Virus genome (UHGV): UHGV-1366603
DNA from: a virus
Length of the DNA: 64,000 nucleotides
Strand: one strand, 5' to 3'
Shown here: positions 9,633 to 47,206 of the stretch, one piece after another
Numbering within the stretch: position 1 is the stretch's first letter
Layout: each line of letters opens with the position of its first letter
Notes under the pieces: model-generated
Told to the model about the DNA's origin: nothing
Seen by the model: only the letters and a program-made list of their open reading frames with translations
The model's database searches: none
Translations under genes and position numbers: made by a program

Positions 9633-10904
9633 ATGGCAAATTTCGCAAAAACTCGCGCCGCTCGTGAATCAATGGAAGCGGCCGATGAAGTAATCGACGG
9701 TATCAGCAACGTTGAACCGGCAGAAGAGAACCTGGACGTCCAGCTTGCGGACGTTGCATCTATCGACGGTCAGCTCGAACAGCTGGAAACCGACGGTGAA
9801 ACCCTGGCTGCCGATACCGAGCGTACTGAAGACGCTATCGAACAGGCGGAAGAAGCCGTTGCTAACGGTGAAGAAATGCCGGAAGAAGCGGTTGCCCTGC
9901 ATGAAGTGGCACAGGAATCCATCGCACGTCGTTGGAACCTGGAGCGTACTAAACTGGCTCGCGAATCCTATCGCCGTGGCCGTGGCATGACTGCTGCTGC
10001 GCAGGAAGGCTGGAAAGAAACCCTGAAAGGTCTTTACGAGCGTTTCATTCAGTTCTGTAAAGAAGTAATTGCGAAGATCAAAGACCTGAAACTGAAATAT
10101 TTCAACGTCGGTAAGACCGCACAGAAACGTGCGAAGAAATATCAGGAAATGATCCGCAAGCTGGGCAAACAAGATAAAGACAACATTTCTGGCGGCTTTA
10201 TCACCAAACTGTCCATCGAAGGTAAATTCGATGCTGCTGGCTCTATTGCCATTGCTAAAGAAGTGACCGCAGGTAAAGCTAAAGGTGCTATCAGTGCACT
10301 GGAAAAACAAGCTGGTGAAGCTGTGACTGCTGTTACCAAAGGTGACGATGACGCATTCAAAGCGATGCGTGGTGATCAGCCGGTTGAACTGTTTGGTAAA
10401 GCAGCGTCTAAACTGCATTCTCTGCCGAACTTTGAAAACGGCGATGCGTCTAAACTGCTGGCTCTGCCGGGCAACGCTTACGTTCAGGCTGGTACTAAAG
10501 AACTGGCTGGCGGCCACAAGTTCACCGCAATTGCGTTCATGAGCACCGGTGACGCTTCTGACGATAAAGAAGTGGCTACTCCGTCTGTTTCCGAAATGGC
10601 TGGCGCGGCATCTGCTCTGGAAGCGATCGGTAAAGGCTTCGAAGCTGTACTGAAAGATTTCCGTGCTTACGATTCTGAAATCGTGAAACTGCAACAGGCT
10701 GCTGAAAAAGCGTCCAACGCGCTGAACAACGAAAAAGACGAAAGTAAGTGGGAAGGACTGCGTAATGCACGTCAGGCCGCTGATCAGTCTGTGAAGAACT
10801 ACCAGACCCTGAACCGTGCCGTTAGCTATGTTGCTAACACCGTTATTAGCGGTCTGAACGGTTACCTGGGTGCTGGTATCGGCGCGTACAAAAAGTCTAA
10901 ATAA
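9633..10904 (+). CDS. abundant acidic-N-terminus protein, paralog A (423 aa); candidate head internal/scaffold-like virion protein
   Basis: Starts MANFAKTRAARESMEA, same as downstream paralog; strongly host-optimised codons (ctg/cgt/ggt/aac); long antisense shadow ORF. Confidence 0.85.
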   Translation: MANFAKTRAARESMEAADEVIDGISNVEPAEENLDVQLADVASIDGQLEQLETDGETLAADTERTEDAIEQAEEAVANGEEMPEEAVALHEVAQESIARRWNLERTKLARESYRRGRGMTAAAQEGWKETLKGLYERFIQFCKEVIAKIKDLKLKYFNVGKTAQKRAKKYQEMIRKLGKQDKDNISGGFITKLSIEGKFDAAGSIAIAKEVTAGKAKGAISALEKQAGEAVTAVTKGDDDAFKAMRGDQPVELFGKAASKLHSLPNFENGDASKLLALPGNAYVQAGTKELAGGHKFTAIAFMSTGDASDDKEVATPSVSEMAGAASALEAIGKGFEAVLKDFRAYDSEIVKLQQAAEKASNALNNEKDESKWEGLRNARQAADQSVKNYQTLNRAVSYVANTVISGLNGYLGAGIGAYKKSK

Positions 10905-10943: not shown

Positions 10944-10962
10944 GGGGAACGACGTGTTCCCC
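10944..10962 (+). other. intergenic hairpin GGGGAAC-GACGTG-TTCCCC between paralogs (weak terminator/processing site)
   Basis: Stem-loop seen in sequence; no strong T-run. Confidence 0.3.
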
Positions 10963-10980
10963 TTAGAGGAAAAGCTTAAA

Positions 10981-12243
10981 ATGGCAAATTTCGCAAAAAC
11001 TCGCGCCGCTCGTGAATCGATGGAAGCTACTGCTACTGTAGTTCCAGACGGCATCGAACTGCCAGCAGAATCTGTTGAAGGTACTCTGGCCGATATCGAA
11101 CATGATACCAAACCGATCGAAGCCCTGGACGCTGACGCTGAACTGCTGGCCGAAGACGGCGACGAAACTGATGCTCAACTGGATGTCCTGGATGAAGCTC
11201 AGGCCGCTGCCGACGGTGAAGGTGCTGGTGAAGACGGCGAAGAGCCGATGGACGCTGAAGAAGATATGCCGGACGACGCAGCGACTGCGCTGGACGTTGC
11301 TCAGGAATCTATCCGTTCTCGTTGGAACTTCGAACACCGTTCTTCCGTTGCACACGAATCCTACGGTTCTCGTAACCGTCGCCAGGTTGCTCGTGAATCC
11401 CTGTGGGAAGACATTAAAGCATTCCTGAAACGTATCTGGGAATGGCTGAAAGAACAAGGCCGTAAGATCAAAGATCGTTGGCTGAAATTCTCCAACCAGG
11501 GTAAATCCATCCAGGCTCGTTCTAAGAAATACGACGATGCTATTCGTAAACTGGGCAAACAGAAGAAAGATGAAATCTCTGGTGGCTTCATCAAGTCTCT
11601 GTCTATCGACGGTAAATTCGTTGGCGACGATCTGTCGCGCCTGAAGAATATCCTGAACCACGTCTCCACCTACTACAGTGGTAACGTTCAGAGCTTCCTG
11701 AACAACGGTACGGATATGGTTGGTAACGTCGTTAAAGGCGATGGTGCTAAAGTTGAGAAACTGAAAGCAGACTTCGCTGCTCTGGCTAAAGAAGACGTTA
11801 GCAAGTTCAAACTTGGTAACATGGCTCTGAAGATGGAGTACGACGAAGAAGGCGGATTTAGCTCCAGCTATGTGGAAGCTGAAAACCGTGCTGAAACCAA
11901 CGTGAAAACTCCGTCTGTTAGCGAACTGGCTAAGACCAATGCCTTCTTCAACGAAGTGGGTAAACAGATCGAGAAGAACGTTCTGGAATATCGTAAGACT
12001 GAACAGGCTCGCGAGAAATTCAGCCAGCAGATTGAGAAGCTGCTGAAAGAAATCGACAGCGTGAAGATCGACGAAAAACCGCAACTGACCGAATCTGTAC
12101 GTACCGCACGTCGTTACATCAACAGCATTAACCAGGCAGTGTCTCTGGGCGAGAAAGTTATTTCCTCTACTCAGAAACATCTGGCTGGCGGTCTGAACGG
12201 CTATATCTCCGCAGGTATCGCTGCTTACGAAAAATCTAAATAA
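10981..12243 (+). CDS. abundant acidic-N-terminus protein, paralog B (420 aa)
   Basis: Start set at MANFAKTRAARESMEA (track ORF begins upstream at 10954); shared N- and C-terminal motifs with paralog A (…GLNGY…AGI.AY.KSK). Confidence 0.85.
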   Translation: MANFAKTRAARESMEATATVVPDGIELPAESVEGTLADIEHDTKPIEALDADAELLAEDGDETDAQLDVLDEAQAAADGEGAGEDGEEPMDAEEDMPDDAATALDVAQESIRSRWNFEHRSSVAHESYGSRNRRQVARESLWEDIKAFLKRIWEWLKEQGRKIKDRWLKFSNQGKSIQARSKKYDDAIRKLGKQKKDEISGGFIKSLSIDGKFVGDDLSRLKNILNHVSTYYSGNVQSFLNNGTDMVGNVVKGDGAKVEKLKADFAALAKEDVSKFKLGNMALKMEYDEEGGFSSSYVEAENRAETNVKTPSVSELAKTNAFFNEVGKQIEKNVLEYRKTEQAREKFSQQIEKLLKEIDSVKIDEKPQLTESVRTARRYINSINQAVSLGEKVISSTQKHLAGGLNGYISAGIAAYEKSK

Positions 12244-12260
12244 TCTCTGATTGTTTAGTA

Positions 12261-12308
12261 GGAGAACCACCCTGTAATGGGGTGGTTCTCCCTTTTCTTT
12301 TTTTTTTC
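12261..12308 (+). terminator. intrinsic terminator
   Basis: GGAGAACCACCC-TGTAAT-GGGGTGGTTCTCC hairpin followed by long T-run. Confidence 0.9.
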
Positions 12309-12322
12309 GCATTAAAAATAAT

Positions 12323-12352
12323 CTCAGATAGATATTACCTTAGTGAGATTAC
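12323..12352 (+). promoter_or_regulatory. promoter-like motif copy 1 (CTCAGATAGATATTACCTTAGTGAGATTAC)
   Basis: 30-mer identical to 47177-47206; lies after terminator and 46 nt upstream of ATG. Confidence 0.55.
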
Positions 12353-20417: not shown

Positions 20418-20457
20418 ATCCCGTTACCTTTGTGGGTAACGGGATGTCCTTTTATTT
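20418..20457 (+). terminator. intrinsic terminator
   Basis: TCCCGTTACC-TTTGTG-GGTAACGGGA hairpin then T-rich tail. Confidence 0.8.
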
Positions 20458-20649: not shown

Positions 20650-20793
20650 ATGATTTCTGTAAAACACAAAAAAGCTATCTTCGCTGTTGTTATCGCTGTT
20701 GTTCTGGGTTGCCTGTACCTGGATATCGACAAAGGCTACGACACTTGCATCGACAACGGTAACTCCGTTGCGCAGTGCACTGGTCGTGGTTAA
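20650..20793 (+). CDS. small single-pass membrane protein (47 aa), highly codon-optimised; missing from ORF track (<60 aa)
   Basis: TAGGAG RBS; MISVKHKKAIFAVVIAVVLGCLYLD… hydrophobic helix; own promoter-like motif and terminator. Confidence 0.7.
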   Translation: MISVKHKKAIFAVVIAVVLGCLYLDIDKGYDTCIDNGNSVAQCTGRG

Positions 20794-20798
20794 TGTAT

Positions 20799-20828
20799 AA
20801 GGCACCTTCGGGTGCCCTTAATTTTTTA
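20799..20828 (+). terminator. intrinsic terminator (UUCG tetraloop)
   Basis: GGCACC-TTCG-GGTGCC followed by T-run. Confidence 0.8.
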
Positions 20829-20847: not shown

Positions 20848-21663
20848 ATGAAAACTATCAAAGACTATTTTCCGACCGGCATCAGTAGCGACCATTTCGT
20901 ACCAGCGGATTCGATGGAAATCATCAGTAAGTCCAGTAGCGGTGAGTTTGTTATTTACCTAACTAATGTAGGAGGTAGACCGAGTTTCATTCTCCTCGAG
21001 CCTAAAGAAGTAAGTGTCTGTACGGTTGCTGTAAATGTTTCTTGCAGCCTTAGCTGGTTGAAGTCCAGATTGCTACGCTTGCTCGTGGTTAATACTGACC
21101 CAGTAGTACGCTTAGAGCGATTAAAAGCAATGAATGAAGTTATCCTGGGTTTTCTGCTACATCCTATTTACGGTAACCCTAAAGTCGCAGAAGCAATACA
21201 AAACGTACAGTTGGTGGAGTGGAGTGATATTGACTACGAGCGTGCCTCCGAATTTGTATTACAGGCAGACGACAACACCGGTGTGTTCTCACGAACGTTA
21301 GATAATGTAACGGTAACTGCACGTGTGTTGTTTGGTTTACAGCGCGTAGAGTTTGAATTGAAACACGTCTACGTGAGCAATAAACCGGAGATGGTGGAAA
21401 CGTTGATTCGTGCGTTCGCATACCCGTTAGATGGTGAATGGGAACAGCAGATTAATGATGCGTTAGGAGCCATGCATTTCCTGGCTGAAACGTTAAGGAA
21501 GGATGAGAAATTGAAAGGTCGTGTTTATCCAGAACACGATTTTGTTTGTGAAGAATGTGGAGCACAGTATCAAATCCGTGTTCCTTTAACCGGCCTAACA
21601 TTCCCGCAAGCCAACGTGCAATGTAAGGAATGTGGCCATGTTCAATACGTAGCGATTAAATAA
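20848..21663 (+). CDS. hypothetical protein (271 aa) with C-terminal CxxC…CxxC zinc-ribbon
   Basis: ORF with GGAG RBS; C-terminus CEECGAQYQ…CKECGH. Confidence 0.8.
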   Translation: MKTIKDYFPTGISSDHFVPADSMEIISKSSSGEFVIYLTNVGGRPSFILLEPKEVSVCTVAVNVSCSLSWLKSRLLRLLVVNTDPVVRLERLKAMNEVILGFLLHPIYGNPKVAEAIQNVQLVEWSDIDYERASEFVLQADDNTGVFSRTLDNVTVTARVLFGLQRVEFELKHVYVSNKPEMVETLIRAFAYPLDGEWEQQINDALGAMHFLAETLRKDEKLKGRVYPEHDFVCEECGAQYQIRVPLTGLTFPQANVQCKECGHVQYVAIK

Positions 21664-21668
21664 AAGCA

Positions 21669-21713
21669 ACCCCTAATCCCGAAAAGGATTAGGGGTACAC
21701 TTTATTTATTTTC
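21669..21713 (+). terminator. intrinsic terminator
   Basis: CCCCTAATCC-CGAAAA-GGATTAGGGG then T-rich tail. Confidence 0.8.
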
Positions 21714-21737
21714 GCTCTTAAAAAAGGAAATTGTGTC

Positions 21738-21893
21738 ATGAAGAATGTTAATGCAATGCTTAACCAGTCATTTGTTAACCAACAGCGTTTTCAGGAACGC
21801 TTAGCACAACTTAAAACACAACACAGACCGCCACAACAAAGAGTGGTTAAGAGCAAGTTTGGCGAAATGGTTTTCGAAAGAAAATCTTTCTAA
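21738..21893 (+). CDS. small basic protein (51 aa), bracketed by two terminators; missing from ORF track
   Basis: ATG with AAGGAAA RBS; MKNVNAMLNQSFVNQQRFQERLAQLKTQHRPPQQRVVKSKFGEMVFERKSF. Confidence 0.45.
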   Translation: MKNVNAMLNQSFVNQQRFQERLAQLKTQHRPPQQRVVKSKFGEMVFERKSF

Positions 21894-21903
21894 TAACCGT
21901 TAA

Positions 21904-21930
21904 GGGGGTGTGACAGCACCCCCTTTTTTA
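21904..21930 (+). terminator. intrinsic terminator
   Basis: GGGGGTG-TGACAG-CACCCCC then TTTTTT. Confidence 0.8.
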
Positions 21931-22052
21931 CGCTTTAACTTTTCCAAAGAGAAGTTAAAGCAAGGTACGCTGCCACAACAGCGTACCTTTTACAACACCA
22001 TTACGTTTCCGTAATGGATTTCTTTAATCACCCTACAAAGAGGGCTTATACC

Positions 22053-22226
22053 ATGAACAATGGTTACTACTTTACTGACAAAATGCTTGCAGAACAGTAT
22101 GCAGCAAAAACCAATTTACAGCAACGTATCTACGAGTATAGTCAACTCGGCGTGAATAAACGATTAAAACCATCCACCAACCGTTTCACACAGATAATCA
22201 CTGAAAAAAGGAGCGAACGCTACTAA
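22053..22226 (+). CDS. small hypothetical protein (57 aa; track gives 22014 start)
   Basis: ORF ending before GGGGGTG…CACCCCC hairpin; start uncertain. Confidence 0.4.
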   Translation: MNNGYYFTDKMLAEQYAAKTNLQQRIYEYSQLGVNKRLKPSTNRFTQIITEKRSERY

Positions 22227-22234
22227 CTAATACA

Positions 22235-22254
22235 GGGGGTGCACTACCACCCCC
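22235..22254 (+). other. hairpin GGGGGTG-CACTAC-CACCCCC without T-run (same stem as terminator 21904)
   Basis: Read directly. Confidence 0.5.
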
Positions 22255-22361
22255 TACTTGGTTCAGTAGTTGACTTTCGTTCATAATTATTAGATGTCTT
22301 GTTTTTTTTTTGCTTTTCGGGACGCATAAGGGGTCGTAGGGGGAGCCGAAGCTCCCCAGAC

Positions 22362-23924
22362 TCAAAAGAGTTCGTCTCCCATACCGCCTGTAAAGACGTT
22401 AATCGACGATGCAGTTACTGTTTCTTCTTTATCGCAATCCCAAGGCAGAATGCCAACTTCACGGAAAGGTATTACTGTATAATGGTAAGCTTCTTTAGTA
22501 TCGATAATTGTACGGTGTTTACCACGTTGTACTTCTAAGTAACTATGTCCATTGACAACACGTTTGTTAAAATACATCTCACCGTCAGCTTCGTTATCCA
22601 AGCTGGAGCAGTTATCGTAAAGACCGCGACCTGGTAAGTTCTTGCAGAAACTTGCTGGGTCTAACGCTTTTAATTTTTTGCCTTCTGGTGAGATTTGGTG
22701 TGGTGCTAACAAGAAACCACGGTTACGTACTACCTGGATGTTTCGAGCGATACGATAAATTTCTTTAATGTCGCTACCGGCAATCCCGTTACCGTGACCT
22801 GCTTTACTGATAGTCCCGAAATAGTCTCCGCGAATCCCAGCTACATGATAACCTCGACGCTTTAAGTCCAGTATTAAGTCGTTTAAGTAGTGTATTTTAA
22901 AATCTGAGTTTGTGTGTTTCTGAAAGATGTATTCCCAACCGTTAGCCCGCATTTTACTACAGAGGTAGTCCGACATTTTTGTGTTGTGCAAAGCTTTCTC
23001 TTCGTCGGTAGCGTTTTCAGAAGCAACCATAACCGGTGCTTCACCTTCAAAATGACCGTAGAGCGCTTGGTACGCATACGCCAAGTTAACGTCCAGTTCG
23101 TTCTCTAAACTTAAATCGAGAATAACCGGCTGCAAATCCCCTTTAACGTTTTCCATTACTTTTTCAGGTGTATTGAATACCGGAATACTGATAGACAATA
23201 ACAGACTAAAAAGTGATTTACAGTTAAAAGGCAGTGCAGGCATTAGCCAAAGTTCTTCGGTAATCCCTTTGTTACAACCCAGCATCTGGTTAATGGCTTT
23301 CCATCCGGTACGTAAACCGTTACCCGCCGCTTTCTTACTGATGGAGTCGAACACGTGTACGAACGGTGCACGGTTATCCGTAATAAGTTCGCCTACAAGT
23401 GAGGGAATCTTATTATGAGAGCGTTCACTGAACGTAGAGAGACTATCTCTGAGGTCGTTGAGCGCCGTTTGTAAATCAACGCGCGTTTCGGTTCCGTTCA
23501 GTGCGCCTAACGTACGACCTAATTTTTGTTTCAGTTGTACGCCTTGAATAGCTTGACGTAATTGGAAGTAGTATTGTGCTACTTGACGGTTAAGATGCTC
23601 GATGCGTGCTTCTGGTTCTTCTGGAATATCATCTTCCAGGAATTTGGTAATCGTATCGTATAGAGGACGTATTTGCGTAGTGGCCAATTTCAAACGTTTC
23701 ATGACGTTTGTGTGGTCGTAAGGCATACCGCCGTCTATGATGGATGTGATGATATCCTTGATTTCGACGAGGGCGGCACGTTCGTCACCTTCCTCTACGT
23801 AATCAGGAAGCTTAGCCTCTAACAGCACTTTTCTTATGACCTCATGATCCTTCTCAGGGTCGGTCAACAGACTTTCAGTGTATAGTGTGGCTAATGCGGT
23901 TATCAACATCATTTTGTTATTCAT
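22362..23924 (-). CDS. hypothetical protein (520 aa)
   Basis: Long minus-strand ORF; AAGGA RBS overlapping start of divergent gene 23938. Confidence 0.8.
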   Translation of the reverse strand: MNNKMMLITALATLYTESLLTDPEKDHEVIRKVLLEAKLPDYVEEGDERAALVEIKDIITSIIDGGMPYDHTNVMKRLKLATTQIRPLYDTITKFLEDDIPEEPEARIEHLNRQVAQYYFQLRQAIQGVQLKQKLGRTLGALNGTETRVDLQTALNDLRDSLSTFSERSHNKIPSLVGELITDNRAPFVHVFDSISKKAAGNGLRTGWKAINQMLGCNKGITEELWLMPALPFNCKSLFSLLLSISIPVFNTPEKVMENVKGDLQPVILDLSLENELDVNLAYAYQALYGHFEGEAPVMVASENATDEEKALHNTKMSDYLCSKMRANGWEYIFQKHTNSDFKIHYLNDLILDLKRRGYHVAGIRGDYFGTISKAGHGNGIAGSDIKEIYRIARNIQVVRNRGFLLAPHQISPEGKKLKALDPASFCKNLPGRGLYDNCSSLDNEADGEMYFNKRVVNGHSYLEVQRGKHRTIIDTKEAYHYTVIPFREVGILPWDCDKEETVTASSINVFTGGMGDELF

Positions 23925-24474: not shown

Positions 24475-26760
24475 ATGAAAGATACCCGAATCTCTAATTT
24501 AGAGAAACTCGTAGAAGCCGGTACTAGTCTGGCCCAAAACGTCATCGGCAACAACACCGCCAGCGAAATGTGGAATACGATTGTTGCAGGCGAGTCCGTA
24601 CGCAGCAACGCAAAAGTGTTTGGCGCTCTGCGTGACGAAGCATCACAGCACTATGCCAACGCTTTTGGTGGCAAGAAAATGTCTCATGCTGCGACTGTCG
24701 CCTCCGCAATGATTCTGGGCGCAGCTAACCACGGTAAAGACCTGCAAGAACGTGTTGCCCAGGAATACGCTAAGCCGGAATTCCACACCAAGTATAACCT
24801 GGATATTGGTATCCCTGGTGCGCAAGGTGGTGACTGGGGTCGTGAGCGCATGGTTGTTGCTCAGGAATACTACAGCAACAAAGACTACGACAAAAACCTG
24901 GGCCTGACCTGGACCCTGAACGTACGTGCTCTGGAAACTCAGTCCAAGTTTGCTGAAACACTGTTCCCGACCATTACCGTCGACACCAACGATGTTGGTA
25001 TTACCGTACGTACTAAAGTGACTACCGTTTCTCGCGGTATCATGAACGCGCTGCTGAGCAAAGACGTCGTTGAAGATCATCGTCGTCCGCTGCACAACGC
25101 ACTGACTGACCACACCGTTCTCCAGGACGAAGCGATCAACATCGTTCCTTACGTAATGGAAACCGGTGAAAACCAGGAATACTTCGTAAGCGAAGAACTG
25201 GTTCCGAACGAAACCGTTCGCCTGGGTCGTGTACCTCCGTATCCGACTAACTACCTGAGCTTTGCAAACGACACGCTGAACCTGTTCCAGCTGTCTGCGC
25301 ATCCGGGTATCGTTCAGGAAGGTTACGAAGAAACTGATGAAATCGCACCGGGTTGTGCTCTGGGCAGCCTGCTGATTTCTGTACGTAAACCGGCCGAAGA
25401 AGCGAAAGCGGGTAAATTCATCAAACTGCACGTTCGTGACATGCAGTTCGCAACCTTCCAGCGTCCTGCTGAAGGTGACGGCCGTGAACTGGTTCTGCAA
25501 TTCCGTCGTACCGCGTTCTCTCTGAATGCGAAAACCACTGACTGGAAAGGCGACGCTATTCCGGCTCTGCAAGCACTGGGCCAGAACTCCTACACCCTGC
25601 GCTACGTTATCACCATCACCATGTCCCTGTTCACCAGCGGCCAGTTCGGTGGTAAAGTAGACATTTCCGGCCACAAACTGGAAATCGAAGGTCTGTACGA
25701 TGCAACTGGTAACAAAGTTGATACCAAGTCTGGTACCGGTAAAGTTATCCTGGATGGCCTGAAACTTGAACTGATGGGCTGGCGCTTCGATGGTACTCGT
25801 ACCAACGAAAACCGTCGTACCCAGGGTCTTCTGCTTGACCCAATTTGGGAACAGGAAAACTACAAACTGCAATACGGTTCTCCGATTCTGACCAAGTCTC
25901 CGGTTGGTGTTGAATACGACGACACTGAACGTCTGGACGACCTGATCTCTGCGGTGAACATCCGTAACGAACAGCTGGCTATTACTCAGACGCTGTCTTA
26001 CACCGAAGCAGTACGTAACGCAGCCGCTGCGATGATCACTCCGTGGGACAAACCGGCTATCCGTGGTCTGGGCCGTCACTGGGTTGCTCCGTGGTTCAAA
26101 GAGTCTGACTACAAAGTCGATGAAGTTGTTCAGTCTCTGGATACCAAAGAAGCGCTGATCAACGCTCGTCAGGGTCTGTTGCAGCGTATCGGTAGCCAGG
26201 TAACTCAGGCTATCCAGGATTCTCGTTTCATTCCTGCACTGCGCCTGCTGACCGCTGATCCGGACATTCTGCCGAAAGTTATTATCGCAACTGACGAACC
26301 GACTGCATCTATGCTGCTGCTGGTTCAGGGCGACCAACGTCTGCTGGGCGACCGTTATGAATACGAAGTCGTTACCACCAACGATGACCGCTGGCGCATC
26401 TACAACGCAGCTGACGATTCCTGGACTCGTCGTCTGCAATGGTTCCTGAAAGTTCCGACTGCGGACGATGGTTCCTACTGCGTACTGAACTGGGGTAACC
26501 ACTTCTGGTCTCCGATCATGGTTACCAACATCAACATCCAGCGTAACGGTTCTACTTCTAAAGAACTGGCTGTACAGCCGCGTAACGCGCATATCTGCCA
26601 CTGCCCGATCACTGGTCTGATTTGGGTTAAAGGCATCACCAAACTGGTTGAAGAAAAACTGGCTTACAACGTTTCTGTAGAACAGAACGGCCAGAAACAA
26701 ACCGACGGTGGTGTAGCAGGTAATGTTGCTGGCGACGGTAAAGACAAAGCTGGTAAATAA
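24475..26760 (+). CDS. major virion structural protein (761 aa); candidate major capsid protein (alternatively tail sheath)
   Basis: Extreme host-optimised codon usage, strong terminator after it, 685-aa antisense shadow ORF; size matches phiKZ-type major capsid proteins (from memory). Confidence 0.85.
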   Translation: MKDTRISNLEKLVEAGTSLAQNVIGNNTASEMWNTIVAGESVRSNAKVFGALRDEASQHYANAFGGKKMSHAATVASAMILGAANHGKDLQERVAQEYAKPEFHTKYNLDIGIPGAQGGDWGRERMVVAQEYYSNKDYDKNLGLTWTLNVRALETQSKFAETLFPTITVDTNDVGITVRTKVTTVSRGIMNALLSKDVVEDHRRPLHNALTDHTVLQDEAINIVPYVMETGENQEYFVSEELVPNETVRLGRVPPYPTNYLSFANDTLNLFQLSAHPGIVQEGYEETDEIAPGCALGSLLISVRKPAEEAKAGKFIKLHVRDMQFATFQRPAEGDGRELVLQFRRTAFSLNAKTTDWKGDAIPALQALGQNSYTLRYVITITMSLFTSGQFGGKVDISGHKLEIEGLYDATGNKVDTKSGTGKVILDGLKLELMGWRFDGTRTNENRRTQGLLLDPIWEQENYKLQYGSPILTKSPVGVEYDDTERLDDLISAVNIRNEQLAITQTLSYTEAVRNAAAAMITPWDKPAIRGLGRHWVAPWFKESDYKVDEVVQSLDTKEALINARQGLLQRIGSQVTQAIQDSRFIPALRLLTADPDILPKVIIATDEPTASMLLLVQGDQRLLGDRYEYEVVTTNDDRWRIYNAADDSWTRRLQWFLKVPTADDGSYCVLNWGNHFWSPIMVTNINIQRNGSTSKELAVQPRNAHICHCPITGLIWVKGITKLVEEKLAYNVSVEQNGQKQTDGGVAGNVAGDGKDKAGK

Positions 26761-26831: not shown

Positions 26832-26856
26832 GGATAGATATTATCAAAGGGAGACT
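26832..26856 (+). promoter_or_regulatory. promoter-like motif (GGATAGATATTATCAAAGGGAGACT)
   Basis: Resembles AGATAGATATTAC core of other copies; after terminator. Confidence 0.4.
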
Positions 26857-31771: not shown

Positions 31772-32071
31772 ATGATTAAATATGTTGTTATTAATGTAAA
31801 CTACGAACGTAGTCCACGTTTTCGCTTCGAATTACCTGAAACCAATGCAACCATGGAGTTTAATCGTTACCTGTTAGAACATTCAAACACCAAAGTCAAT
31901 CACGGTAGATACTGGCTTATCTACTATAATGCCCGTAATGAGTTACTGAAAGCCGTTAAGAAATCAGGTCAGTCAGAACTGTTAGCGAAACTGATGGCGT
32001 TTGATAACGATCCTTTAGCGATAGGAATTATGTTAGACCTTGCTATCAATAAAGACGAGATAGCGTGGTGA
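31772..32071 (+). CDS. hypothetical protein (99 aa)
   Basis: ORF with GAGGA RBS. Confidence 0.7.
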   Translation: MIKYVVINVNYERSPRFRFELPETNATMEFNRYLLEHSNTKVNHGRYWLIYYNARNELLKAVKKSGQSELLAKLMAFDNDPLAIGIMLDLAINKDEIAW

Positions 32072-32077
32072 AAAAAA

Positions 32078-32133
32078 AAGAAAGCTACTCCGACCCCAGA
32101 AGGGTCGGAGTAAGCTCGAATTATTTTTTTTTT
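32078..32133. terminator. bidirectional intrinsic terminator
   Basis: A9 run, CTCCGACCC-CAGAA-GGGTCGGAG hairpin, T11 run, between convergent genes. Confidence 0.85.
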
Positions 32134-47176: not shown

Positions 47177-47206
47177 CTCAGATAGATATTACCTTAGTGA
47201 GATTAC
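47177..47206 (+). promoter_or_regulatory. promoter-like motif copy 2 (CTCAGATAGATATTACCTTAGTGAGATTAC)
   Basis: Identical 30-mer to 12323-12352; same 46-nt spacing to ATG and similar leader. Confidence 0.55.

Follow-up and report, generated by a model that had tools for sequence, protein, structure and literature searches.

A probable tandem array of hairpin-bounded small-gene cassettes beside the helicase gene of an SPN3US-like jumbo phage

The 64,000-nt stretch of viral DNA analysed here (UHGV-1366603; hereafter the window) belongs to an SPN3US-like jumbo phage, and positions 21664-22360 raise the question of why so many hairpins are packed around two very small open reading frames (ORFs), and what these hairpins do. 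The segment separates two convergent genes, one on the + strand for a 271-aa zinc-ribbon protein and one on the - strand for a DnaB-like helicase, and it holds seven stable stem-loops along with the two ORFs. The initial annotation had placed it between structural genes; it does lie between genes, but the neighbours are the helicase on the right and the zinc-ribbon protein on the left. All the hairpins claimed there were found, with coordinates off by 1-3 nt at most. Perfect-stem hairpins (stem of at least 7 bp, dG <= -8) numbered six in the 697 nt, against a mean of 0.04 and a maximum of 1 in 300 dinucleotide shuffles, and as six of the 27 such hairpins of the 64-kb window fall within these 700 nt, this is its peak of hairpin density. 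Folding of the whole stretch gave z = -11.9 for the + strand and -7.9 for the - strand. The reading that we favour, at a probability of roughly 0.78, is that small-gene cassettes are arranged here in a short tandem array. The features of the region are as follows (hairpin energies in kcal/mol).

20848-21663, + strand: upstream 271-aa gene (phrog_10180), the left conserved flank of the array.
21669-21696, + strand: hairpin H1, ACCCCTAATCC-CGAAAA-GGATTAGGGGT (-19.3, z -4.9).
21738-21893, + strand: cassette gene A, encoding a 51-aa basic protein, apparently a divergent member of the gp195/gp194 (phrog_18219) family.
21902-21925, + strand: hairpin H2, GGGGGTG-TGACAG-CACCCCC, then T6 (-18.3, z -4.1).
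21932-21961, + strand: hairpin H3, TTTAACTT...AAGTTAAA (-11.4, z -6.2).
21962-21989, + strand: hairpin H4, GGTACGCTG-CCACAA-CAGCGTACC (-17.8, z -6.8).
21998-22017, + strand: hairpin H5, CCATTACG-TTTC-CGTAATGG (-9.8, z -4.4).
22053-22226, + strand: cassette gene B, encoding a 57-aa basic protein, a probable paralogue of A.
22234-22255, + strand: hairpin H6, GGGGGTG-CACTAC-CACCCCC (-15.2, z -2.0), the 3' hairpin of cassette B.
22302-22329, no strand assigned: conserved block, T10, then GCTTTTCG, then GGACGCATAA.
22340-22357, - strand: hairpin H7, GGGGAGC-CGAA-GCTCCCC in + strand letters (-16.7, z -2.1).
22362-23924, - strand: DnaB-like replicative helicase (phrog_3213, E 7.5e-199), the right conserved flank, converging on the array.

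Both small ORFs appear to be real protein-coding genes under purifying selection. The 51-aa ORF was confirmed at 21738-21893 and the ORF of about 57 aa at 22053-22226, starting from an internal ATG of the listed ORF 22014-22226. Each has a Shine-Dalgarno motif, AAGGAA at 21724-21729 for gene A and GAGGG, 8 nt upstream of the ATG, for gene B. The pN/pS ratio was 0.21 for gene A and 0.15 for gene B (7 alleles), and 0.06-0.32 within each of six cassette types. Gene A has a 98% identical homologue (P0030), and gene B has homologues P0050 and P0053. A local family HMM made from five SPN3US-type members and run against a database of 2155 ORFs matched ORF A at E 1.9e-4 and ORF B, only after one iteration, at E 2.3e-4; the family link of B depends on this single iteration of a small local HMM. 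In a direct PHROG scan, neither A nor B had a match at E <= 0.01. The HMM matches, the purifying selection and the annotated SPN3US homologues point to coding genes, so the proposal of mini-genes holds; they are tightly packed, and each is bracketed by stem-loops. Two other ORFs that cross the hairpins, one of 55 aa on the minus strand (22198-22365) and one of 34 aa on the + strand (21910-22014), were judged noncoding because the hairpin loops within them invert between genomes.

Gene A and gene B are probably divergent paralogues of SPN3US gp195/gp194. The 271-aa gene upstream, whose product shows weak zinc-ribbon matches at residues 230-267, is the positional equivalent of SPN3US gp196, judging from its slot upstream of the helicase and its C-terminal zinc ribbon. 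In SPN3US the same slot, between the gene at the gp196 position and the helicase gp193, likewise holds two annotated 48-aa genes, gp195 and gp194, both assigned to phrog_18219. The two loci have in common the gene size class (47-57 aa), an F-x-Q-R-[VIL]-x-E core motif with a basic C-terminus, a GTG-N6-CAC hairpin 3' of the gene, and the same block adjoining the helicase. They differ in that A and B share only some 16-28% identity with the SPN3US pair and lack its KGLGGEI motif, and in that the lineage of the window has six cassette types in up to four copies. A family profile search returned 60 matches, all of about 45-60 aa and all on jumbo-phage-sized contigs, and an exhaustive search of 1.84 billion representatives returned 14 matches, all to this small-protein family except two weak ones that are probably low-complexity. 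The family thus seems to occur only in SPN3US-like giant phages. Its members had no matches in Pfam, NCBIfam, PDB sequences or a PDB fold search, and a literature search for SPN3US gp194/gp195 found nothing. The family proteins are predicted to fold into a long helix at the N-terminus and a beta-hairpin at the C-terminus; the AF2 model of the gene A product places the helix at residues 2-28, at a modest confidence (pLDDT 68).

The hairpins can be assigned to the cassettes and their flanks one by one. H1 (element 21669-21713) consists of an 11-bp stem and the loop CGAAAA followed by TTTATTTATTTTC, presents a hairpin with a T-rich tail on either strand, and has an unchanged loop in all 16 related genomes; it appears to be the canonical terminator of the upstream 271-aa gene. 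The variable region begins right after its tail (...TTTTCGC). H2 (21902-21931) is the putative 3' hairpin of cassette A, with the shape of a canonical intrinsic terminator, and its loop occurs in both orientations among relatives. H3, an AT-rich spacer hairpin (GCTTTAACTTT-TCCAAAGA-GAAGTTAAAGC) that shows one compensated A-T to T-A change in relatives, is the middle one of a three-hairpin inter-cassette module of 93-94 nt. The GC spacer hairpin H4 (21962-21993; AAGGTACGCTG-CCACAA-CAGCGTACCTT, then TTAC) stands directly 3' of the stop codon of cassette gene D in relatives, and H4 is therefore regarded here as a terminator left where D is absent. H5, together with a small CCCT/AGGG stem over the gene B Shine-Dalgarno motif (21998-22044), forms a structured leader of cassette B, and an analogous small hairpin is located 20-35 nt upstream of the start codon in each cassette type of the relatives. 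H6 has an extended lower stem, GAACG...CGTTC (22215-22282). H7 reads GGGGAGC-UUCG-GCUCCCC on the minus strand, 4 nt past the helicase stop codon, and is the probable 3' hairpin of the helicase mRNA; the UUCG loop is formed on the - strand only, just as + strand genes have it in their + strand terminators, and H7 is unchanged in 16/16 close relatives.

The repeat unit of the array is about 330 bp long and comprises, in order, a GC hairpin with a CTG-N6-CAG apex, a small leader hairpin with a Shine-Dalgarno motif, an ORF of about 50 aa from the single lineage-specific basic-protein family, and a GC hairpin with a GTG-N6-CAC apex, usually with a T-run next to it, followed by an AT-rich hairpin. 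Two such units (A and B), plus H1 and H7, account for all seven hairpins. The distance between H2 and H6 is 331 nt, the cassette period, and the 93-nt three-hairpin module recurs at a spacing of 336 nt with 80% identity. Within the 64 kb, a covariance model of this module detected no copy outside the array, for which reason a dispersed REP/BIME-like repeat was rejected; the model had a weak match at the homologous position of SPN3US.

Comparison with relatives revealed that cassettes are gained and lost as wholes between genomes whose helicase DNA is 98-99% identical, with breakpoints at hairpin boundaries. Among ten contigs that encode the identical 520-aa helicase protein, the arrays were C; A-B; C-E; A-D-B; C-D-x; C-G-D-B; and C-G-D-E. 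The arrays A-E, C-D-E and a second C-E were found on contigs whose helicase is closely similar. On the other side of the array, nucleotide identity of the 271-aa gene is 96-97% in most related contigs. The identical-helicase genomes thus carry one to four cassettes per array, plus gene remnants (of B, G and E, in contigs L005, L006 and L025). Cultured Seoulvirus isolates carry one or two copies. The D-cassette indel maps exactly between H3 and H4, starting at the 3' end of H3. The order [A|C]-G-D-B-E was held in 16/16 arrays. [quoted passage not shown] Double changes were present in 12 of the 32 pairs predicted by RNAalifold. Across 13 diverse phages, the 3' hairpin of the cassettes kept an invariant GTG-N6-CAC apex while eight of its 11 lower pairs covaried, with a covariation score reached by none of 500 shuffles; H4 had double compensatory changes in 9/11 pairs and no broken pair, and 5/7 pairs of H7 covaried across 13 phages. 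Orthologous hairpins among relatives differ by exact reverse-complementation of the loop, also seen in H4, and their stems differ by two-sided changes that leave the pairing perfect. Such covariation and loop inversion can come from template switching in replication without selection at the RNA level (PMC8794818). The window hairpins resemble the template-switch mutations of Monttinen and Loytynoja (2022, PMC8794818) in their loop reverse-complementation and paired stem changes; the phylogenies in that work concerned rRNA and microRNA, whereas here the polymorphism is found among near-identical phage genomes, in intergenic hairpins. We propose that the hairpins could act at two levels. In DNA, the repeated modules would supply homology and palindromes for unequal recombination and template switching, which would shuffle cassettes and flip loops. 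In RNA, the hairpins would act as intrinsic terminators or attenuators and as protectors of 3' and 5' ends, making each cassette a semi-autonomous expression unit and insulating the convergent helicase transcript.

Two further pairing or sequence matches were examined and set aside. The MFE fold draws a pairing of the H1 loop (TCCCGAAAAG) with 22313-22322 (CTTTTCGGGA); about 0.2 exact 10-mer inverted repeats are expected per 700 nt, the pairing has an uncompensated mismatch in L005 and L006, and SPN3US has no equivalent. Mimicry of a CRISPR repeat was suggested by GTATAGGCAG in the loop of one relative, and was judged a coincidence because this is only one among many loop variants.

H1, H2, H6 and H7 begin 4-9 nt past stop codons, as H4 does directly in the relatives that carry gene D, and the energies of these gene-end GC stem-loops are about -15 to -19 kcal/mol. 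Among the 22 strongest hairpins of the window (dG <= -12), 17 lie outside the region, most of these just past gene ends; their usual form is a GC stem with a UUCG loop followed by TTTATTT(A)TTTT. The GC-rich stems of 7-12 bp right after stop codons and the T-rich tails of H1 and H2 are those of intrinsic terminators, and other convergent junctions of the same genome (e.g. 32071-32133) have the A-tract/hairpin/T-tract form of bidirectional terminators. A U-tract follows the stem in H1 (TTTATTTATTTT) and H2 (T6), is weak in H4 (T4), and is lacking 3' of H6 on the + strand and of H7 on the - strand. H4, H6 and H7 may therefore be stabilisers or something else rather than terminators. H3 to H5 also differ from intrinsic terminators by lying away from gene ends in the window, and the responding polymerase here would be a phage enzyme, since SPN3US-like phages probably rely for transcription on multisubunit RNA polymerases of their own (PMC7598289). 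A plain terminator model does not explain the invariant YTG-N6-CAR apices or the block at 22302-22329.

That some structured segment functions independently as a stable non-coding RNA, as the initial annotation had suggested, we consider unlikely. The candidates would be the 94-nt three-hairpin spacer (21899-21993), whose consensus fold of about -50 kcal/mol carries many compensatory changes, and a minus-strand transcript from the TTATG of the block to the extended H6 hairpin, which on that strand is followed by U6; such an RNA might, for example, act as antisense against the 3' end of gene B or as a regulator of the helicase. The block, which reads TTATGCGTCC-N8-A10 on the minus strand, is kept in SPN3US, phiEaH2, Huxley and Caitlin as well as in the window phage, at one copy per genome of about 240 kb. 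This conservation of TTATG(C/T)GTCC plus the A-run across genera favours such a transcript, as does the finding that phiKZ late promoters have nothing conserved except a TATG overlapping the start site (PMC7598289). A promoter element would be expected to recur, however, and TTATG does not do so in the window; GGACGCATAA was rejected as a general promoter, with 4 matches at one mismatch against 3.7 expected and one occurrence per genome. In relatives that lack an array, the block has the helicase hairpin on one side and a bidirectional terminator on the other, and so reads equally well as helicase 3'-UTR. The spacer, in turn, is invariably a component of the cassette repeat, with no further occurrence in the 64 kb, and its covariation is explicable at the DNA level (PMC8794818). 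Rfam 15 gave no match at the gathering threshold in the 64 kb, nor one for the region at E-value thresholds, where the best score was 20.7 bits against a gathering score of 80.4, and no tRNA or tmRNA was found. With all hairpins at gene ends, at gene starts or in the repeated cassette spacer, we find no support for an sRNA locus.

Two other roles for this end of the gap were discarded. A replication origin at the cluster of T10 and palindromes is contradicted by the cumulative GC skew, which has no inflection near 22.3 kb and tracks gene orientation. The helicase stop context (CUC UUU UGA, with the hairpin 4 nt downstream and both alternative frames open) suggested programmed frameshifting or readthrough, which was dropped because SPN3US, phiEaH2, Huxley and other relatives lack the slippery sequence.

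It is improbable that the hairpins are primarily DNA-level sites of a dedicated cassette exchange, similar to integron attC sites or to mini-circles of PeSL type, with any RNA effect secondary. The differences in cassette presence between near-identical genomes, the breakpoints, the frequent loop inversion, and the invariant YTG-N6-CAR apex of the array hairpins, which the other terminators of the window lack, would all suit such sites. Yet the fixed order fits deletion and unequal crossing-over of an ancestral array rather than site-specific insertion, and integron cassette arrays have variable order. Whereas attC sites have extrahelical bases, the stems here pair perfectly, and the neighbouring genes, which encode the helicase, the phiKZ-type major capsid protein and a 174-aa protein, include no integrase or other recombinase. 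Ordinary terminators beyond the array, at 20418 and 20801, show loop inversion as well. There is hardly any likelihood that the GTG-N6-CAC and CTG-N6-CAG palindromes are duplex operators by which a dimeric DNA-binding protein, possibly the small proteins themselves, auto-regulates the array: the apex is invariant with a variable spacer and the proteins are basic with a predicted helix and beta-hairpin, but the 10-12-bp GC stems covary far past the apex, as expected of hairpins, the site is downstream of the gene in single-gene relatives, and the proteins have no similarity to known DNA-binding folds or families.

Hot spots of small genes flanked by hairpins are a familiar feature of T4-type phages. 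To our knowledge, they have not been described before for SPN3US-like (Seoulvirus and related) jumbo phages. The closest analogue of the cassette array is provided by the hyperplastic regions of T4-type phages with their PeSL cassettes (Arbiol et al. 2010, PMC2839356; Comeau et al. 2014, PMC4122927), in which short conserved intergenic stem-loop terminator modules flank small non-essential ORFs of unknown function, ORFs have been inserted, deleted or replaced between close relatives at breakpoints that coincide with the repeated modules, and homologous recombination between modules is the proposed mechanism. The array differs in having three hairpins per module and paralogues of one family in a fixed order at a single locus, whereas T4-type phages have unrelated ORFans in several regions. 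In addition, no sigma-70-like promoter is joined to the window stem-loops. A scan with the sigma-70 consensus detected nothing promoter-like in the spacers; its single match in the region, at 22115-22142, is internal to ORF B, and fewer such sites were counted overall than shuffles predict. The SPN3US-like group is thought to be independent of host RNA polymerase (PMC7598289). The early expression that had been proposed is not borne out either, as the sole recurrent promoter-like motif of the window (GATAGATATTAYC, at 12327, 26833 and 47181) is missing from the region.

The products of the cassette array would be dispensable accessory factors, for which a role as host-interaction or anti-defence effectors is the most plausible. 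A more far-reaching proposal, which we regard as doubtful, is that this is a dedicated diversification locus of nucleus-forming jumbo phages, in which small basic effectors (e.g. anti-defence or host-takeover factors) are shuffled as hairpin-bounded cassettes, a phage factor recognises the YTG-N6-CAR apices, and the block TTATG(C/T)GTCC plus A-run is a new cis-element or the start of an antisense sRNA; recognition of the apices would then serve cassette exchange or RNA processing. On the cassette-array reading, the hairpins are mostly ordinary gene-end and gene-start structures, and cataloguing the region as an sRNA locus is unwarranted on sequence alone. The phage lineage is very common, the identical helicase protein being indexed in more than 1000 public assembly blocks. 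The locus amounts to a tractable natural experiment, in which flanks of 98-99% identity enclose between one and four genes of a small-protein family restricted to the lineage, and if these proteins are host-interaction or anti-defence factors, it would be a compact site in which to search for new effectors.

The region at 21664-22360 comprises two real small genes in a repeating cassette unit whose borders are conserved hairpins. It fills the convergent gap between a plus-strand gene for a 271-aa protein and a minus-strand helicase gene, with a phiKZ-type major capsid gene located two genes past the helicase. The features are as follows.

20848-21663, plus strand, 271-aa gene, left flank (phrog_10180; zinc-ribbon matches at the C-terminus are weak)
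21669-21696, hairpin H1
21738-21893, plus strand, ORF A, 51 aa, with Shine-Dalgarno motif
21902-21925, hairpin H2
21932-21961, hairpin H3
21962-21989, hairpin H4
21998-22017, hairpin H5
22053-22226, plus strand, ORF B, 57 aa, with Shine-Dalgarno motif
22234-22255, hairpin H6
22302-22329, conserved non-coding block, TTATGCGTCC-N8-A10 in minus-strand reading, single copy beside the helicase 3′ hairpin
22340-22357, minus strand, hairpin H7, the helicase 3′ hairpin
22362-23924, minus strand, DnaB-like helicase gene, right flank (phrog_3213, E 7.5e-199)

The helicase part of the region showed ~80% nucleotide identity to Seoulvirus/SPN3US-like jumbo phages, with no closer match among cultured phages. 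SPN3US shares this layout, its gap containing two annotated 48-aa genes, gp195 and gp194. The identical helicase protein is indexed in > 1000 assembly blocks, and this uncultured jumbo phage is therefore very widespread. The same lineage has been deposited as a circular 222-kb 'plasmid' from an E. coli urine isolate (L020, accession no. NZ_CP173450.1) and an Enterobacter ludwigii gull isolate (L021, NZ_CP134650.1); the lineage may persist in a carrier state. In the neighbouring gap, between hairpins at 20418 and 20801, lies a further small gene, a 47-aa plus-strand ORF (20650-20793) with one hydrophobic segment and the C-terminal motif C-x2-NGNS-x3-CTGRG, conserved in distant relatives (L010, L012, L015-L018). 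Elsewhere in the window, a 685-aa ORF (24643-26700, minus strand) is antisense to the 761-aa major capsid gene, another very long ORF (9669-10694, minus strand) is antisense to a large gene, and ORFs of 429 and 449 aa share the same DNA on opposite strands (10954-12243, plus; 10963-12312, minus). These long antisense ORFs are probably shadows of codon usage, though unusually long for 46-49% GC.

The hairpin density is real and far beyond chance, and every hairpin listed in the initial annotation was present. Folded singly, the hairpins reached -9.8 to -19.3 kcal/mol (z -2.0 to -6.8 against dinucleotide shuffles), and the 698-nt stretch folded whole gave z = -11.9 on the plus and -7.9 on the minus strand. 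Six hairpins in the region had a perfect stem of ≥ 7 bp and a dG of -8 or below, against a mean of 0.04 in 300 shuffles, which makes the region the densest 700-nt stretch of the window (6 of the 27 qualifying hairpins in 64 kb).

The two small ORFs proposed between the hairpins proved to be real genes, with Shine-Dalgarno motifs, family HMM matches and purifying selection. Neither matched phrog_18219, which includes both gp195 and gp194, at E ≤ 0.01. A local HMM of five SPN3US-type proteins, searched against 2155 ORFs, matched ORF A at E 1.9e-4, and ORF B at 2.3e-4 once first-round matches were added. The alignment has a common core, F/Y-x-Q/E-R-[VILM]-x-E/Q, plus a basic C-terminus. A word-indexed profile search returned 60 proteins, all short, nearly all on 220-250 kb contigs and none with a name or Pfam domain, and 1.84 billion cluster representatives scanned exhaustively with HMMER gave only 14 matches, of which two are weak and probably low-complexity and the rest belong to this family. 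Several family members in databases are frameshifted or fused. AlphaFold2 (44 sequences) predicted, with modest confidence (pLDDT 68), a helix spanning residues 2-28 and then a beta-hairpin, and no matches were found in a PDB fold search, PDB sequences, Pfam or NCBIfam. ORFs A and B are assigned to one lineage-specific family.

An exact look-up of the 520-aa helicase protein yielded ten long contigs, which together with IMG/VR and GenBank relatives gave 16 arrays. These contain six cassette types, A (51 aa), C (52), G (61), D (55), B (57) and E (53-56), arranged as follows.

A-B: window, L030
A-E: L021
A-D-B: L028, L031
C: L023
C-E: L020, L029
C-D-E: L004
C-D-x: L025
C-G-D-B: L022, L024, L026
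C-G-D-E: L027
G-E: L005
x-B-x-E: L006

None of the 16 arrays violates the order [A or C]-G-D-B-E. The helicase DNA of the array contigs is 98-99% identical to that of the window, except in L005 and L006 (88%). The variable stretch runs from immediately after the H1 tail (...TTTTCGC) to the last cassette hairpin, and remnants persist in L005 (B 3′ end fused to H1), L006 (G 3′ end retained) and L025 (E truncated into the last hairpin). One or two cassette copies are present in cultured Seoulvirus isolates, and none in the more distant relatives phiEaH2, Asesino, Caitlin, L012 and L016. Whole cassettes have been gained and lost, with breakpoints at hairpin boundaries. Alignment of A-B with A-D-B arrays placed the D cassette exactly between the H3 end and the H4 start; as the D stop codon directly precedes H4 in A-D-B relatives, H4 in the window is the putative terminator that remains where D is missing.

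A 93-nt module comprising three hairpins, of GGGGTG, AT and GC type, repeats at 336-nt spacing with 80% identity in four-cassette arrays; the H2-H6 distance in the window is 331 nt. A small hairpin precedes the start codon of every cassette type by 20-35 nt; for B this is H5. H1, with TTTATTT(A)TTTT after its GC stem, has the form found at most gene ends of the genome. The loop of H7 reads UUCG on the minus strand alone and the hairpin starts 4 nt past the helicase stop, which assigns it to the helicase transcript. Most strong terminator hairpins in the window precede runs of 8-10 T, typically with TTTTA or TTTTC before (12298, 14810, 22302, 26806, 32124, 42499, 57078), and the convergent junction at 32071-32133 is a symmetrical bidirectional terminator (A9 run, hairpin, T10 run).

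Folding and covariance analysis across related phages, one of the checks proposed in the initial annotation, revealed conserved structure, with compensatory changes in the module, the cassette 3′ hairpins and H7. For 14 distinct copies of the three-hairpin module, RNAalifold predicted 32 pairs, 12 with double compensatory changes; 9 of the 11 pairs of the third hairpin covary and none is broken. Among cassette 3′ hairpins of 13 diverse phages, the GTG-N6-CAC apex is invariant, 8 of 11 lower pairs covary, and the covariation score was 0.705 against 0.17 for shuffles and ≤ 0.27 for slid controls; the percentage of paired cells is inflated because the 13 sequences were picked for hairpin potential. 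In H7, 5 of 7 pairs covary (13 phages). Within the 64 kb, the module covariance model hit the array alone (97 bits), followed by a weak, partial match over H6-H7, and in SPN3US it gave a weak match between gp195 and gp194 (E 0.04).

Orthologous hairpins were also compared between genomes with 98-99% identical flanks (window 21902-22255, 20418-20445 and 20801-20816; loci L004-L006 and L020-L031), and their loops are often exact reverse complements.

GGGGT...ACCCC type: GTGACAGC (8 copies), inverted GCTGTCAC (7 copies)
H4 type: GTTGTAGC, inverted GCTACAAC
AGTAAGGACT type: GCGCCAAC, inverted GTTGGCGC
GCAGTAGGGGAT type: GTCGGTC, inverted GACCGAC

Inversion is frequent in array hairpins and rarer at two terminators outside the region, at 20418 (TTTGTG in 11 genomes, CACAAA in one; 1/13 flipped) and 20801 (TTCG in 15, CGAA in one; 1/16 flipped); H1 and H7 loops are never flipped (16/16). 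Such inversions bear the signature of template-switch mutation at palindromes and demonstrate that these palindromes act at the DNA level. As template switching also yields instant compensatory stem changes (PMC8794818), the covariation is weaker as proof of selection on RNA structure.

The conserved block is shared by the window phage, SPN3US, phiEaH2, Huxley, Caitlin and others, spanning several SPN3US-like genera. On the minus strand, the helicase stop codon is followed by H7, 8-10 nt, TTATG(C/T)GTCC, 6-10 nt, a run of 8-11 A, and TAAG or CAAG. Each genome has one copy of the block, which is not a recurrent motif. In array-less relatives its A-run adjoins a bidirectional terminator, so the T-tract of the plus-strand terminator may account for part of the block. 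In phiKZ late promoters, TATG at the start site is the sole conserved feature (PMC7598289); a kinship of the block's TTATG with it is offered as a lead only. Separately, identical 27-mers, AGATAGATATTACCTTAGTGAGATTAC, occur at 12326-12352 and 47180-47206, downstream of terminators and upstream of plus-strand genes; the core GATAGATATTAYC is present at three sites (0.13 expected), the third, related one being 26833-26845. This motif, which recalls the AT-rich early-promoter type of phiKZ-like phages, is probably a phage promoter, and none lies within the hairpin-array region.

Among known systems, the PeSL cassette, known from hyperplastic regions of T4-type phages (PMC2839356, PMC4122927), is the closest analogue. 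In both, terminator stem-loops stand in repeated intergenic modules that flank small dispensable ORFs and mark indel breakpoints. However, the sigma-70 early promoter that defines PeSL is absent from the array region, and the array ORFs are paralogues in fixed order at a single locus. The small-RNA reading of the initial annotation gained no positive support, Rfam giving no match, and is considered unlikely. An integron-like reading was rejected on the grounds of cassette order and stem shape and because no integrase gene adjoins the array.

The region is a polymorphic small-gene cassette array with its putative terminators and its spacers, and most likely not a small-RNA cluster. Transcripts of the upstream operon would stop at H1, and each cassette would form a short expression unit, with its GTG-N6-CAC hairpin fixing or shielding the 3′ end; the H2 tail is a canonical T6. 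H7 and the extended H6 stem, the latter followed by U6 on the minus strand, would act with the stacked hairpins to separate the convergent plus-strand and helicase transcripts. At the DNA level, the repeated modules would provide homology for unequal recombination. The small proteins are presumably dispensable, because many relatives lack them; nonetheless each type is under purifying selection, with pN/pS of 0.06-0.32 among alleles of related genomes within each of the six types and, in one further comparison of type E, zero non-synonymous changes and only four synonymous differences. An accessory role in host interaction is most plausible for these proteins.
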